DNA of 64,000 bases, from contig JAJXTN010000004.1 in NCBI GenBank assembly GCA_021783725.1, positions 12,178 to 76,177 on the forward strand. The letters are read 5' to 3'. This DNA is from a bacterium. Lineage in GTDB: Bacteria; Patescibacteriota; Saccharimonadia; Saccharimonadales; UBA4665. The notes below the pieces were generated by a model that made no database searches, had not been told where the DNA came from, and saw only the letters and a list, made by a program, of their open reading frames with translations. Below, piece after piece: positions 6,162 to 56,226 of the stretch. The first letter of the stretch is position 1. Every line of letters starts with the position of its first letter. The position numbers and the translations under genes were made by a program.

Positions 6162-6252
6162 GTCATCCCAGGCTTGACCTGGGATCTAATCGGTTATGGC
6201 GTCCTACGATCCAGCTACATAATATTAGATTCCAGATCAAGTCTGGAATGAC
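6162..6252. repeat. GTCAT...ATGAC double-hairpin element (copy A), followed by two further GTCTGGA(A)ATGAC half-units to 6293
   Basis: GTCATCCCAGGCTTGACCTGGGATC ... AGATTCCAGATCAAGTCTGGAATGAC. It is the inverted counterpart of 55226-55318. Confidence 0.85.
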
Positions 6253-6309
6253 GACGGACGTCTGGAAATGACGTAGAAGAGTCTGGAATGACAGGGAGAA
6301 TTAATTATT

Positions 6310-7191
6310 CTACGCAGTTAATCTGTGTTTTTGGCATTTGGGGCACAAGTGGGTACCCCGACCAGCGACTCGAGTTTTGACTATAACCGTCCCGCAGCGC
6401 GGACAAGACTGACCTTCCCGTCGAAACACTCTAGCAAAGTCCATATAACTACCCTTTTTACCTTCAGCATTAACGTAATTACGATCGGTCGAACCACCTT
6501 TTTCAATCGCCAAACGTAGTACGAATGTTAGTTCATCGTATAGTTTATGGATTTGATTGGGCTTCAAATCATTAACTATTGTAAGCGGGTGAATTTTTGC
6601 ACCCCACAAAGATTCATCGGCATATATATTACCAACGCCGGCCACGACGGTTTGGTCTAGTATGACAGCCTTGATATTACTCTTGGGACGTCGGAGTAAC
6701 CTTGTTTGTAAAGCTTTCCAGTCGAAACCATCAGCCAGCGGTTCAGGACCTAATTTTTTCATAAAATCCAAATCATCAACTTCTAAGGTTGGCAGTAGTC
6801 GCATCCAACCAAATTTACGTTGATCGTTAAAGAACAGCTGGCTAGAATCGACAAAATTGATTATTACTCGAGTGGATTTATCGGGTAACTTACCGATTAA
6901 TGAATCATTAGGATGACCGGCACCAAATCTTTGCTGTTGGCTACGAAACACCAATTGACCGGTCATTTTCAAATGTACTACTAGTGAATAATCGCTATCG
7001 AGATTAATGATTAGCGCTTTGCCGCGCCTTTTTATATCAATCACTTGGGCGCCAATCACAAAATTATCAACATCATGAACGGCATTGGGGAATGACTTGG
7101 CCCAATCATGACTAACGCTGGCGATTTGGCGCTTTGGCAATAAGCTCAATAAACCTATGCGCACAGTTTCAACCTCGGGTAGCTCTGGCAT
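6310..7191 (-). CDS. mutM: formamidopyrimidine-DNA glycosylase
   Basis: The N-terminus is MPELPEVETVR and the C-terminus has the zinc finger CPRCG...CPKCQ. Confidence 0.92.
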   Translation of the reverse strand: MPELPEVETVRIGLLSLLPKRQIASVSHDWAKSFPNAVHDVDNFVIGAQVIDIKRRGKALIINLDSDYSLVVHLKMTGQLVFRSQQQRFGAGHPNDSLIGKLPDKSTRVIINFVDSSQLFFNDQRKFGWMRLLPTLEVDDLDFMKKLGPEPLADGFDWKALQTRLLRRPKSNIKAVILDQTVVAGVGNIYADESLWGAKIHPLTIVNDLKPNQIHKLYDELTFVLRLAIEKGGSTDRNYVNAEGKKGSYMDFARVFRREGQSCPRCGTVIVKTRVAGRGTHLCPKCQKHRLTA

Positions 7192-23202: not shown

Positions 23203-25008
23203 CTACATTGTCTCGGGTGCGTTAATGCCTAACAATTCTAAGCCAGTTTTAAGCCGCTGAGCGTACAACTCGACCAGTTTTAACCGAATTGCCTGGCGAT
23301 CGTCACCAACTACTCGATTATGCTCATAGAAACGATTAAAATTTTGAGCTAATTCATACAAATAAGTGGCGATGTAGTGAGGCATCAGTTCATTGACAGC
23401 TTTATCAAATACTTCGGGGAATTCACTGATTTTGCGAGCCAGACTACGCTCGCCAGGCTCAAAAGTCACATTTAGCCCAGTCTCGGCTTTTGATGGGCTA
23501 GAATCCGTCGGCACGCTATTCGACGGAGTGATGTTGCTCACGACAGGCATATCTTGATTGGATTCCAAATCAAGTTTGGAATGACTTGGAGAGTTTTCGG
23601 CTTTGCGTAAAATACTGCGGGCCCGAGCATGCGCATACTGCAAATATGGGCCGCTATTGCCTTCGATGCTAACCGATTCCTCGGGGTCATAAATGATGTC
23701 ACCGCCGGTACGCTGTTTCAAAAATGCGTACTTAACAGCTGAGTTCGACACTTGATCGTTAGTCTGGGCATTGATTTTCTCAGACGCGACTTTGGCGGCA
23801 TCCAGTACATCATTAGCCAACAAGAAATTACCCTTACGCGAACTCATTTTCACCCCACCAGCCAGCTTAATTTGGCCATGAGTAATATGTTTGGTGCGTG
23901 GTGGCAGTTCCGGCTGGAATTGCTCAATGCTTTTGAGCACAACTTTCATATACTCGACAATATCATTACCAGTGACAATGACCGATGTATCGAAAGCGTA
24001 ATCCTGCCATTTCTTCATGATTAAACCGACGTCTTTGGCTTCATAAGTTGGCAAACCAGCCGAATTGATAAATACCCGAGTGTGTAAGCCATATGGTTCA
24101 CCACGAAATATTACGGCACCGTCACTGACCTCATAAACCCCTTTGGCTAGTTGTTGTTTGACGGTATCGATACCAAGTTGAGCGGTTTCGCTTTCAGGAT
24201 AATATTTCTCAAAGGCGGTTACGCCAAGTCGTTCATAGAATAAATTGAAATAGTCATAACTCCATTGTCGGCAAGTCCAGTAGACATAGGCAAAATCGCT
24301 ATCTTTATCACCACTAGTTTGTGTTTCGTAGACCCGTTTATTGATAGAAACGATTTCGGTTTTGGCCACTTCATCTTCGTCATAAGCACTGCTACCATCT
24401 ACATATCGAGCCGCCATGAAAGCCGCTTTTTCATCAAGCGATTCGGTCGACATCGATTGAATATGCTGTTTGGCGGCGACCTCATCAACTTGGCCTTGAC
24501 CGTCATATTTCAAAATGCCCCACATCGCTTTACCAACATGAAGACCAACGTCACCACCAAAGTTAACTCGGTGCACGTTGCCACCAGCGGTCTCTAGCAA
24601 ATTGGCAATCGCGTTGCCGACAATCGTCGTATATAAATGACCAGCATGTAAAACTTTGAAAGGGTTGGGATCAGAATACTCGGCGACGATAGTTTGGTCT
24701 TTTAACGACCGCGATAATTCGCTATACATTGCCTGATTTATGCTGGTATCGTTCAATGTCAGATTAATGAAACCGGGGCCAGCGATGTCGATGGCACTCA
24801 GTTTATCAGCCAGCTTGGTTTGTAAGACTGACGTTAATTCTTCGGCTACCTGTCTAGGGTTTTTACTGACCGACTTGGCTAACTGGAGAGCGACGTTAGT
24901 CGCGTAATCACCAAACTTTTCTTCAGGACGAGTTAATTCAATTACTACTTTTTGACCGAATAAATCTTCGGCAACTTCAGCAATCACATTCTCCAAATCT
25001 TTCTGCAT
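23203..25008 (-). CDS. argS: arginine--tRNA ligase
   Basis: HAGHLYTTIVG (HIGH), KMSSRKG (KMSKS-like) and the C-terminal anticodon-binding DALR-type region. It contains a repeat-derived insert (see findings). Confidence 0.93.
   Translation of the reverse strand: MQKDLENVIAEVAEDLFGQKVVIELTRPEEKFGDYATNVALQLAKSVSKNPRQVAEELTSVLQTKLADKLSAIDIAGPGFINLTLNDTSINQAMYSELSRSLKDQTIVAEYSDPNPFKVLHAGHLYTTIVGNAIANLLETAGGNVHRVNFGGDVGLHVGKAMWGILKYDGQGQVDEVAAKQHIQSMSTESLDEKAAFMAARYVDGSSAYDEDEVAKTEIVSINKRVYETQTSGDKDSDFAYVYWTCRQWSYDYFNLFYERLGVTAFEKYYPESETAQLGIDTVKQQLAKGVYEVSDGAVIFRGEPYGLHTRVFINSAGLPTYEAKDVGLIMKKWQDYAFDTSVIVTGNDIVEYMKVVLKSIEQFQPELPPRTKHITHGQIKLAGGVKMSSRKGNFLLANDVLDAAKVASEKINAQTNDQVSNSAVKYAFLKQRTGGDIIYDPEESVSIEGNSGPYLQYAHARARSILRKAENSPSHSKLDLESNQDMPVVSNITPSNSVPTDSSPSKAETGLNVTFEPGERSLARKISEFPEVFDKAVNELMPHYIATYLYELAQNFNRFYEHNRVVGDDRQAIRLKLVELYAQRLKTGLELLGINAPETM
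23465..23585. repeat. GTCAC...ATGAC double-hairpin element embedded in the argS coding sequence
   Basis: ...GATTCCAAATCAAGTTTGGAATGAC (23561-23585) matches the intergenic unit AGATTCCAGATCAAGTCTGGAATGAC, with a compensatory G:C to A:T change in the stem. A second hairpin, TAGCCCA...TGGGCTA, lies at the other end. Confidence 0.8.
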
Positions 25009-43994: not shown

Positions 43995-44071
43995 TGGTGT
44001 ACCCGACAGGATTCGAACCTACGACCTTCGGCTCCGCAAGCCGACGCTCTATCCAGCTGAGCTACGGGTAC
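43995..44071 (-). tRNA. tRNA-Arg (anticodon GCG)
   Basis: Manual cloverleaf: acceptor GTACCCG/CGGGTAC, anticodon arm TCGGC-TTGCGGA-GCCGA, T loop TTCGAAT, encoded CCA. Confidence 0.9.
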
Positions 44072-44312
44072 TCGTCGAAACTTACGTCTCTGTCTCGTTT
44101 TGCCTAGCAGGCAAATGCTTCGATCAGAGACTATGTTCCTCCTCTCAAATTCACATTCAGTCGCGTACGCTCCTTGGATTGTGAATTTGGGTAATCGCAA
44201 ATTGCAACAGGGGTAATTCTAGCATGTTTGAGGTGTTAATGCTAGCCTGCAAGAGCTTTAATAATTTATTACGGTCAAATATGTCGTTTAACTGATAAAA
44301 TATGTTGGTCGC

Positions 44313-44412
44313 GGAGAGGTGACCGAGTGGTTGAAGGTGCTACTCTCGACGCCAGTCAAGCCGATTCGGCTTGACCAGGTAGCGAAAGAGTACAATTTAT
44401 TCACTCGTTCGC
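44313..44412 (+). other. tRNA-Ser-like 5' fragment followed by two stable hairpins (pseudo-tRNA or unknown structured RNA)
   Basis: GGAGAGGTGACCGAGTGGTTGAAGGTG mimics the acceptor and D arm of tRNA-Ser. There is no T arm or 3' acceptor strand. Hairpins GTCAAGCCG-att-CGGCTTGAC and GCGAAAGAGT...ACTCGTTCGC follow. Confidence 0.35.
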
Positions 44413-44427
44413 GTTAAAGAAGTGTAT

Positions 44428-44517
44428 GGAGAGGTGCAAGAGTGGTTGAATTGGACGGTCTCGAAAACCGTTGTGCCAGCAATGGTACCGAGGGTTCGAA
44501 TCCCTCCTTCTCCGCCA
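44428..44517 (+). tRNA. tRNA-Ser (anticodon CGA)
   Basis: Type II tRNA with anticodon arm ACGGT-CTCGAAA-ACCGT, a long variable arm, T loop TTCGAAT and encoded CCA. Confidence 0.9.
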
Positions 44518-54784: not shown

Positions 54785-54877
54785 TGGCGGAGAGGGAGGG
54801 ATTTGAACCCTCGCGGGGGATTGCTCCCCCCTATCGATTTAGCAAACCGACCCCTTCAGCCACTTGGGTACCTCTCC
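54785..54877 (-). tRNA. tRNA-Ser (anticodon GCU)
   Basis: Acceptor GGAGAGG/CCTCTCC, anticodon loop TTGCTAA, a long variable arm, T loop TTCAAAT and encoded CCA. Confidence 0.9.
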
Positions 54878-54921
54878 GTATCTGTTCGAGCAACCGTGTT
54901 ATTGTAACTCGTATTTTAATC

Positions 54922-55011
54922 TGGCGGAAGGGGTGGGATTCGAACCCACGGTACCATTGCTGGCACGACGGTTTTCAAGACCGTTTCCATCGACCACTCG
55001 GACACCCTTCC
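54922..55011 (-). tRNA. tRNA-Ser (anticodon UGA)
   Basis: Acceptor GGAAGGG/CCCTTCC, anticodon arm ACGGT-CTTGAAA-ACCGT, a long variable arm and encoded CCA. Confidence 0.9.
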
Positions 55012-55225: not shown

Positions 55226-55318
55226 GTCATTCCAGACTTGATCTGGAATCTAATCTTTAATGTAGCTGGAGCGCTTTGCGCCAAAACTGATTGGATCCCA
55301 GGTCAAGCCTGGGATGAC
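55226..55318. repeat. GTCAT...ATGAC double-hairpin element (copy D2), inverted counterpart of copy A
   Basis: GTCATTCCAGACTTGATCTGGAATC ... GATCCCAGGTCAAGCCTGGGATGAC. Confidence 0.85.
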
Positions 55319-55405: not shown

Positions 55406-56071
55406 TTAGGGTTGGGCGAAGACCAAGGCTTCGACTCTTCTAGCACCGCTTCTACGTAATAATGTTGCCGCTGACTCAAGAGTCGAGCCAGTAGTCACAA
55501 CATCGTCGATCAACAAAATATTCGCATTATGGATACTGCCGACCCGGACAACTCTAAACGCCCCTTTCAGTTGAGCCAACCTTTGACTGCGTCGGGCACC
55601 GACTTGATGAGACTGATTGGTCCGCTTCAAACAGTTCACTAGCGGTTGACCTGATAACTTAGCTAACTCTCTGGCTAGCAAAACGGCTTGATCATAACCG
55701 CGACGGCGAATTCGACTGCTAGCGGTCGGCACCGGCACAATCACATAACTAACATCTGGGTCGATATTGCGAAACATACGCTTGGCCATTTGCTTAGTTA
55801 CTGCCTGGGCGCCATGAAACTTTAGATTCCAGACTACGTCTTTAGCCAAACCGGTATATATGGTAGCAACCCGGACACTGTACAGTCGACTGCTACTACG
55901 ACAAGGTCGGCAGGTGAGGGCTTGTGGTGACACTTTACGACAGCGATAACACCTTGGCGGAATGACTGGTAATTGATGATTACAGCTATCACAAAGCAAG
56001 CTACCTTCAGTCCGACAACCCAGACATTCATAAGGCGCTATTACAGACAGCAGTCGATCAAATATACTCAT
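55406..56071 (-). CDS. comFC: ComF-family protein (phosphoribosyltransferase domain)
   Basis: An N-terminal Cys-rich zinc ribbon (CLGC...CDSC...CYRC) and the PRT motif LLIDDVVTTGSTL. Confidence 0.8.
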   Translation of the reverse strand: MSIFDRLLSVIAPYECLGCRTEGSLLCDSCNHQLPVIPPRCYRCRKVSPQALTCRPCRSSSRLYSVRVATIYTGLAKDVVWNLKFHGAQAVTKQMAKRMFRNIDPDVSYVIVPVPTASSRIRRRGYDQAVLLARELAKLSGQPLVNCLKRTNQSHQVGARRSQRLAQLKGAFRVVRVGSIHNANILLIDDVVTTGSTLESAATLLRRSGARRVEALVFAQP

Positions 56072-56226
56072 GTTGTGATTAATGTGTTGTAAATAAGTGA
56101 GGGCAAGTTGCACTCTCTTAACGACCTAAGCTATACTGTTGATAACACAAAAATGCAAGACTCTTATCACTGATTCCTTAACTATTTAAGGATGACGTTG
56201 CATTAATCAATTGGAGGGTAACAACT

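Follow-up and report, generated by a model that had tools for sequence, protein, structure and literature searches.

The argS locus and its insert

The arginine-tRNA ligase gene argS of a Saccharimonadales bacterium (Patescibacteriota; assembly GCA_021783725.1) carries a hairpin-bearing block inserted in frame, and it is this insert, together with the palindromic repeats to which it is related, that we describe here. The window, by which we mean the whole stretch of DNA that was analysed, comprises 64,000 nucleotides of contig JAJXTN010000004.1, and its features are collected in Table 1. The product of argS is an arginyl-tRNA synthetase (ArgRS) with the Pfam domains Arg_tRNA_synt_N (residues 2-85), tRNA-synt_1d (100-423, catalytic) and DALR_1 (456-601); its translation includes ...YAHARARSILRKAENSPSHSKLDLESNQDMPVVSNITPSNSVPTDSSPSKAETGLNVTFEPGERSL... 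Homologues numbering 7998 were found, the best-named of which come from Candidatus Saccharimonadales / Saccharibacteria.

Where does the insert lie in the enzyme? About 36-41 extra residues separate the first two helices of the DALR (anticodon-binding) domain, placed between YAHARARSILRKA and the next helix of that domain. We aligned 120 homologues with the query, and in most of these 121 sequences the loop that runs from YAHARARSIL(R)KA to (F/L)xPGERSL has 13-17 residues, as against 49 in the window and in its close relative P0001. Of the insert-free relatives, P0002 and P0003 are the closest; their loop has 13 residues, and outside it they lie at an amino-acid p-distance of ~30% from the query; P0002 is encoded on contig L122, which is syntenic with the window, and its site reads RKAAVDDQPLTDFDDGERSL. 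A preliminary description of this DNA had stated that E. coli ArgRS lacks the insert. This is so: in the E. coli enzyme (4oby), whose alignment with the query runs as far as residue 472 and resumes at 517, 13 residues stand in place of ~45, and the ArgRS chains in the PDB skip the insert in alignment. The AlphaFold model of the window's ArgRS has an overall predicted local distance difference test score (pLDDT) of 87 and a predicted template modelling score of 0.86, with residues 476-511, between helices 453-472 and 518-528, below pLDDT 50. Low scores between two helices, taken with the variability of the same loop in relatives, lead us to read the insert as a predicted disordered extension of a surface loop that varies naturally and lies where the anticodon-binding domain begins.

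The insert is tied to repeats elsewhere in the window by a 24-nt hairpin. Apart from two mismatches, ATTCCAAATCAAGTTTGGAATGAC at 23562-23585(+) is the same as ATTCCAGATCAAGTCTGGAATGAC, which stands at 6229-6252(+) and 55226-55249(-), and 100 dinucleotide shuffles produced no such match. The mismatches face each other in a single stem pair (G-C to A-T), and the 8-bp stem remains perfect; by simple arithmetic, ~1% of double substitutions placed at random in a hairpin of this kind would have that outcome. An in-frame hairpin block with intergenic kin and a paired, stem-preserving change are what the preliminary description had reported, and on both it read the sequence correctly. The edge of the block at 23585/23586 is firm, and the opposite edge lies somewhere within 23465-23478. 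Besides the canonical unit the block holds a second, atypical hairpin with TAGCCCA/TGGGCTA arms at 23473-23479 and 23494-23500, which we infer to be a repeat unit as well, and a spacer hairpin that had escaped the earlier description.

Could the insert be an ordinary lineage-specific expansion of a low-complexity loop that resembles the repeats by coincidence? Loop length is variable in all ArgRS, the peptide is rich in S, P and D, and most of the block is without a homologue. Nevertheless, the 24-nt match with its two paired mismatches, the correct grammar of tag, loop and tail (see below), and the complete repeat dimers found in the same loop of relatives make such a coincidence highly improbable. 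Even less credible is the idea that the block is never translated, being removed or bypassed in the manner of an intron, an intein or a translational hop. It would accord with the hairpins that bound the block and with the 121 nt between GTCAT and GTGAC, a length not divisible by three, although the net gain judged from loop length is 36 amino acids. The frame, however, is open in the window and in all ~35 insert-bearing relatives, and no frame-broken argS occurs among 80 metagenomic argS loci, a separate sample picked without regard to inserts. Universally open frames are expected only if the inserts are translated; moreover, no intron RNA match in Rfam and no intein domain in Pfam was obtained. 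Thirteen argS loci missed by the sequence pattern proved to be ordinary insert-free genes.

Table 1. Repeat elements and their host gene in the window, with complete dimers from the ArgRS loop of relatives
Feature	Position	Strand	Length	Description
argS, arginine-tRNA ligase	23203..25008	(-)		intact 601-codon open reading frame carrying the insert
Inserted block, putative decayed repeat dimer	23465..23585	(-)		peptide (S)HSKLDLES...ETGLNV(T)
Canonical argS unit	23559..23586	(-)		tag A-GTC, 8-bp stem ATTCCAAA/TTTGGAAT, loop CTTGA, tail CCA
Second, atypical argS unit (putative)	23465..23505	(+)		GTCAC, bulged 10-bp stem ATT-TAGCCCA/TGGGCTA-GAAT, 14-nt loop ending CTTTTGA, tail C
Spacer hairpin inside the insert	23504..23527			TCCGTCG/CGACGGA
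Intact intergenic dimer	6162..6252	(+)	91 nt	GTCATCCCAGGCTTGACCTGGGATC ... GATTCCAGATCAAGTCTGGAATGAC, spacer ~42 nt
Trailing half-copies of the repeat end	6260..6292	(+)		GTCTGGAAATGAC, GTCTGGAATGAC, ~20-nt spacing after the dimer
Intact intergenic dimer, inverted orientation	55226..55318	(-)	93 nt	-44.5 kcal/mol, z -7.35
ArgRS-loop dimer, L203			92 nt	GTCATTCCGAGCTTGACCCGGAATCC...GGATTCCCAATCAAGTTGGGAATGAC
ArgRS-loop dimer, L204			68 nt	GTCATCCTGAACTTGTTTCAGGAC...ATCCTGAAACAAGTTCAGGATGAC
ArgRS-loop dimer, L146			68 nt

A family of tagged hairpin repeats

The two intergenic copies are inverted pairs of hairpins of ~92 nt, with spacers of ~41-43 nt and unlike stems in their two units. Each folds as a single long and almost perfect hairpin. 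The first (-42.8 kcal/mol, z -7.2) lies 18-58 nt beyond the stop of an open reading frame (ORF) on the minus strand, 6310-7191; the second lies between tRNA genes (54788-55011) and the stop of ORF 55406-56113. A generic scan of the window for GTCAY hairpins brought out only the three known loci, with the remaining matches at shuffle level.

How widespread is the repeat? One genome per bacterial species was scanned with the degenerate pattern ATYCCARRTCAAGYYTGGRATGAC, and at least 120 loci (L001-L120) were recovered, bearing out the expectation that further copies exist. They are found in Saccharibacteria and other Patescibacteria, Elusimicrobia, Dependentiae, Chloroflexi (Dehalococcoidia), Campylobacterota (Sulfurimonas), Bacteroidota, Alpha- and Gammaproteobacteria, Cloacimonadota, Margulisbacteria, Melainabacteria, Planctomycetota (Phycisphaerae), Actinomycetota (Acidimicrobiales) and others. 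Among the matches listed, near-identical 24-nt hairpins such as ATTCCAAATCAAGTTTGGAATGAC occur in well over ten phyla, and the 26 complete dimers that were measured range from 54 to 148 nt. The partner hairpin usually stands 30-50 nt upstream and keeps the GTCAT head and the CTTGA loop on another stem (GTCATCCTGAACTTGATTCAGGATC, for example). Trailing half-copies or tandem right ends, like those that follow the first intergenic dimer of the window, were also seen at L010, L011, L042, L064 (three 43-nt tandem units) and L083.

The stems vary and the pairing is kept. Among the matches listed, 129 of 139 fall into the eight fully complementary combinations of the 64 that the pattern allows, and the AAA/TTT stem is the commonest variant (53 of 139); loosely defined matches outside the scan pattern hold 26 different stems. 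The copies were aligned for covariation, as had been proposed, and the signal is strong: over 60 distinct hairpins, pairing reaches 79% of cells versus 62% after shuffling, covariation scores 0.529 versus 0.230, none of 500 shuffles scores as high, and controls with slid partners reach at most 0.216. The first pair is A-U in 45 of the 60 hairpins and the second U-A in 40. In 210 canonical hairpins of other genomes the tag is TGTC (97), CGTC (86), AGTC (22) or GGTC (5), and the tail most often CCA (101), CTA (44) or CTC (37). In the window, the 6252 and 55226 ends carry the tags CGTC and TGTC, the opposite ends carry GGTC and AGTC, and the argS unit has AGTC.

These traits place the repeat beside the CGTC-tagged repetitive extragenic palindromes (REPs) defined by Di Nocera, De Gregorio & Rocco (2013, BMC Genomics 14:522; PMC3733652). 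As defined there, such a REP has an unpaired CGTC tag (often TGTC or CCTC), an 8-9-bp stem whose first two positions are complementary A-T residues, a loop of 4-5 nt and a CCA tail, and occurs mostly as an inverted dimer with a spacer of 20-100 bp, heterodimers being frequent. The paper reports CGTC REPs from five phyla, places some of them within genes, including tRNA synthetase genes, and gives them no dedicated transposase or RAYT (REP-associated tyrosine transposase); CGTC-1 takes in Neisseria dRS3 and the R. conorii element RPE-6, and CGTC-4 takes in RPE-4. Our repeat has a YGTC tag in 183 of the 210 hairpins, and stems of the form ATTCCAAA/TTTGGAAT in argS and ATTCCAGA/TCTGGAAT and ATCCCAGG/CCTGGGAT in the intergenic copies. 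The three canonical units of the window have the 5-nt CTTGA loop, but the second argS unit, with 14 nt, does not; the tail is CCA in the argS unit and at 55295-55318 and CTA in the other intergenic units. Both intergenic copies are inverted dimers, and the argS block would be another. The repeat comes closest to the CGTC-2 type (8-bp stem, 5-nt loop) and is like CGTC REPs in its site just downstream of ORFs, in its occasional intragenic copies, which would be translated, and in the unlike stems of a dimer. It is unlike the published repeats in the AGTC tag of the argS unit, in the atypical partner unit and in its ArgRS host; arginyl-tRNA synthetase does not appear among the REP-decorated genes in the supplement of PMC3733652.

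Ever since the Rickettsia palindromic elements were described (RPEs; Ogata et al. 2000, Science 290:347, as presented in PMC10969869 and PMC3733652), housekeeping genes have been known to harbour palindromic repeats in frame; RPE insertions of this kind are frequent (reviewed in PMC10969869), and a single event in argS is not new. As with the RPEs, which enter unrelated housekeeping genes, the palindrome would supply an extra surface peptide that is compatible with function: the argS frame is open, the rest of the gene is under purifying selection, and the protein model is confident with a disordered loop between helices. The host phylum and the sequence are different, and RPE-1 measures ~150 bp. 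Where RPEs lie dispersed among many genes, the inserts described here fill one loop of one protein in many separate lineages. A kinship between the two would rest on the classing of RPE-4 and RPE-6 as CGTC repeats in PMC3733652.

Other known systems share some of these features. Neisseria dRS3 / NIME elements have the hairpin grammar (CGTC-1), clustered or tandem units and trailing partial copies like those at 6260-6292, but a loop of the 4-nt class, unlike the 5-nt loop of the window. dRS3 is an integration target for filamentous prophages, and we know of no report of it in frame inside genes. REPINs and GTAG REPs, too, are non-autonomous inverted dimers of short hairpins that fold as one hairpin and leave no target-site duplication; they are mobilised by RAYTs, which are IS200/IS605-like HUH tyrosine transposases. 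Assignment to this group was rejected on the tag, which is YGTC and not GTAG (or GTGG), and no search for a RAYT was made. Classical miniature inverted-repeat transposable elements (Correia, ERIC, RUP) are likewise small, have terminal inverted repeats and form occasional in-frame fusions, and in bacteria they are mobilised by DDE transposases. In the window's repeat, unlike these, each terminus is a hairpin. This model was also rejected, since the 26 complete dimers show no target-site duplication, with flanking 1- to 6-mer matches at chance level. By eye, their 12-nt left flanks hold no target motif beyond T-richness. The absence of duplication suggests a cut-and-ligate mechanism of movement, of a single-strand type.

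Our literature search found no report of the hairpin strings or of their peptide translations, nor of these repeats in Saccharibacteria. Two findings are new: the placing of this CGTC/TGTC-tagged REP superfamily in Saccharibacteria and about a dozen phyla beyond the five reported, and the repeated filling of one loop of ArgRS, described next. Saccharibacteria have tiny genomes that are thought to be poor in mobile DNA.

Recurrent inserts in ArgRS and in other genes

Is the argS insert of the window an isolated event? Loops of at least 22 residues occupy the site in 31 of the 121 aligned ArgRS sequences, none of which has an insert of at least 20 residues at any other internal position, and long loops occur in about 5-6 of the 80 metagenomic argS loci. 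The loop thus appears to be a recurrent insertion site, with independent-looking inserts in about 7-25% of relatives. Complete dimers stand in it at differing codon positions in L203, L204 and L146, and the loops of L205 and L208 hold another subfamily in another frame (VILNDSEES / VILSGSEES). Insert-bearing sequences are often next to insert-free ones (P0084 and P0027 at distance 0.145, P0011 and P0020 at 0.084, P0086 and P0043 at 0.074), a pattern that would need several gains, losses or both; relatedness was judged from ordering by the unweighted pair group method with arithmetic mean and from nearest-neighbour distances, and is too star-like for an exact count of either. Because CTTGA and GGAATGAC each place a TGA in one frame when read from the sequence, the common frame (xGT CAT ...) is to a large extent an effect of survivorship.

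Two pairs of relatives show how the hairpins themselves change. The ArgRS of L206 (10001-11776) and that of L209 (3001-4779) are 13% diverged outside the loop, and the core of their insert is conserved. The outer arms of 14-20 nt, in contrast, are entirely unlike (GCGGCATCCAAACTTT/AAAGTTTGGATGCCGC versus CCGCCGACTTCTCC/GGAGAAGTCGGCGG), although within either genome the two arms pair perfectly. The apical hairpins are also unlike, and the folding energy is about -70 kcal/mol for both inserts. Such a replacement of arms is beyond the reach of serial point compensation; it might come from nested insertion into hairpins or from template switching. L203 (5554-7332) and L210 (486-2255) share one dimer, in which the right hairpin is ATTCCCAA/TTGGGAAT in the former and ATCCCCGA/TCGGGGAT in the latter, with two fully compensated pairs and zero uncompensated changes. 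A further pair, P0037 and P0055, is 5% diverged outside the loop and has loops of 46 and 55 residues that are largely unalignable as peptide; frameshifts or indels, and a very fast turnover of the insert, are suggested by this comparison.

We would go one step further, though only as a somewhat unlikely proposal: the loop after the YAHARARSIL helix in Saccharibacteria ArgRS may be a preferred landing and turnover site for CGTC repeats, at which palindromy is actively renewed within an essential coding sequence, the replaced arms of L206 and L209 being the example. If so, a DNA process that depends on hairpins would be ongoing there, be it insertion targeted to existing hairpins or template switching, and the filled, empty and replaced sites would form a natural series for working out how CGTC repeats are mobilised. 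The recurrent use of this loop means that, in a single well-understood enzyme, nature has repeated the course of insertion, decay and loss many times, and replicated sites with covarying stems and no target duplication are useful material on how these repeats move.

ArgRS has a second, smaller insertion site in its N-terminal domain, after query residue ~49. It is occupied in L174 (136-1902; ...AEQIAEILKQVQDDTLLFKTVEIAGAGF), where the peptide reads ...AEILKQVQDDT..., and in P0084 (DPSLKLRTTG). The DNA scan, which was unbiased as to gene, also recovered in-frame copies in other proteins. In two other Saccharibacteria genomes, the same hairpin, encoding SRHSKLDLESS, lies inside the AAA_2 domain of a ClpB/ClpC-type AAA+ chaperone (L047, 3-2522(-)) and near the C-terminal part of a leucyl-tRNA synthetase (L076, 1937-5119(-)); a related right-end hairpin is in frame in an epimerase (L117, IGFQIKFGMT). 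Residues 550-638 of the L076 leucyl-tRNA synthetase, an open frame of 1061 amino acids, match the Pfam NUDIX domain (E 1.5e-9) between the editing domain and the remaining synthetase. For annotation, this means that low-complexity 'inserts' in proteins of the candidate phyla radiation may be translated repeats.

Age of the insert and origin of its paired stem change

The preliminary description had held that the hairpin is either under selection or was recently mobile. Recent mobility finds no support, for contig L121, which encodes P0001, is syntenic with the window and shares 90% nucleotide identity over argS, carries the same insert. Because both have it, the insertion predates their split. 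Between the two, the insert differs at 13 of 123 nt (10.6%), with codon changes of 3 synonymous to 10 non-synonymous, and the rest of argS at 171 of 1683 nt (10.2%), with 127 synonymous to 25 non-synonymous. The latter ratio, for which the relative is given as 94% identical, indicates purifying selection on the rest of argS; the insert peptide, by the same comparison, drifts almost neutrally and is essentially unconstrained.

Is the hairpin functional inside argS, then, and maintained there by selection? It might, for instance, influence argS expression as a structure in mRNA or DNA, or serve in recombination as a site. Three observations are in favour of such a role. The canonical hairpin unit is unchanged in L121, and the 36 nt of hairpin and tail hold none of the 13 differences (hypergeometric P ~0.008, for a region chosen post hoc); the L203/L210 element has its compensated stem pairs and no uncompensated change; and the outer arms of L206 and L209 are complementary although wholly unlike. 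On the other hand, most ArgRS relatives have no insert at all, and the window's own insert offers one close pair only. The whole argS block folds weakly (z -3.0 against shuffles), its L121 version more weakly still (z -1.1), whereas the intergenic copies reach -7.2 and -7.35. In L121 a C-to-T change has turned one pair of the second hairpin into a U.G wobble (sense strand), and a substitution disrupts the spacer hairpin. Moreover, the compensated pairs of L203 and L210 could be independent insertions of related copies, given that the insert-free P0027 is nearer to P0084 than P0069 is. We regard selection in situ as doubtful. The lack of constraint on the peptide speaks against it too. The insert is better seen as an old, decaying copy in which one hairpin may be under at most weak residual constraint.

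How, then, did a G-C pair come to be A-T? The compensation may be mechanical, either because the argS copy came from an AAA/TTT source subfamily or because a change in one arm was carried over to its partner in one step by intrastrand template switching. That quasi-palindromes are corrected by template switching is reportedly established (Ripley; Lovett). That ATTCCAAATCAAGTTTGGAATGAC represents the commonest variant, that nearly all listed matches are fully complementary when many other combinations were allowed, and that the arms of L206 and L209 were replaced block-wise and not by serial point compensation are all in keeping with this. Against it, the 64-kb window outside argS holds the GA/TC variant only, with no local AAA/TTT source copy seen, and template switching is without direct evidence. 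A mechanical origin is accordingly a serious possibility, one that we would still not call probable. Since AAA/TTT is the commonest public variant, descent from another subfamily explains the argS stem as well as two substitutions inside argS would, and the G-C/A-T difference need not have arisen there.

We consider it probable that the argS insert is a translated, tolerated and now decaying CGTC/TGTC-tagged REP dimer in a permissive loop of ArgRS. In the sequence of events that we propose, such a dimer would have inserted into argS where the loop joins the first two DALR-domain helices, leaving the frame open; the resulting disordered surface loop of ~36-41 residues would have been tolerated by the enzyme. 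The insertion preceded the split from the 90%-identical relative; afterwards the insert drifted almost neutrally as protein and lost most of the long-hairpin structure, with one canonical hairpin kept. The paired difference would follow the rule of the family, in which stems are free to vary and complementarity is kept, presumably because the hairpin is the substrate of a mobilising machinery or of hairpin-templated repair. Family-wide compensation points to a need for the hairpin in propagation or to hairpin-templated correction; both fit the data, and neither needs selection on the argS mRNA.

Several points weigh against reading the entire block as one translated REP dimer. Homology to the intergenic repeats can be demonstrated for only ~30 of its 121 nt, the canonical hairpin and tail (nhmmer E=1.3e-4), and beyond the first ~30-50 nt the block has its sole match, within 2 Mb of related loci, in L121. 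A bulged 10-bp stem and a 14-nt loop make the second unit atypical, and a homologue of it, sought in the same 2 Mb, was found only in L121. The AGTC tag of the argS unit is a minority form. The empty-site relative L122 reads CTG ACT GAT TTT where the window has GTG ACT TTT; the codons of the terminal GTGAC may therefore be ancestral, which would bring the net gain closer to 108 nt (36 codons) than to 121-123 nt. The preliminary description, right about a hairpin-bearing block inserted in frame, did not assign it to a repeat superfamily already described. That the insert is translated is deduced from the open frame. Membership in the CGTC REPs of PMC3733652 was judged by the grammar described there. 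Finally, no transposase was seen, and no search for transposases was made.

No family of Rfam 15 corresponds to the repeat: at the gathering score only tRNAs are found in the window, and permissive mode adds only sub-threshold matches to microRNA-precursor hairpins. The tRNA genes are four in number, at 54788-55011 and 43998-44514.

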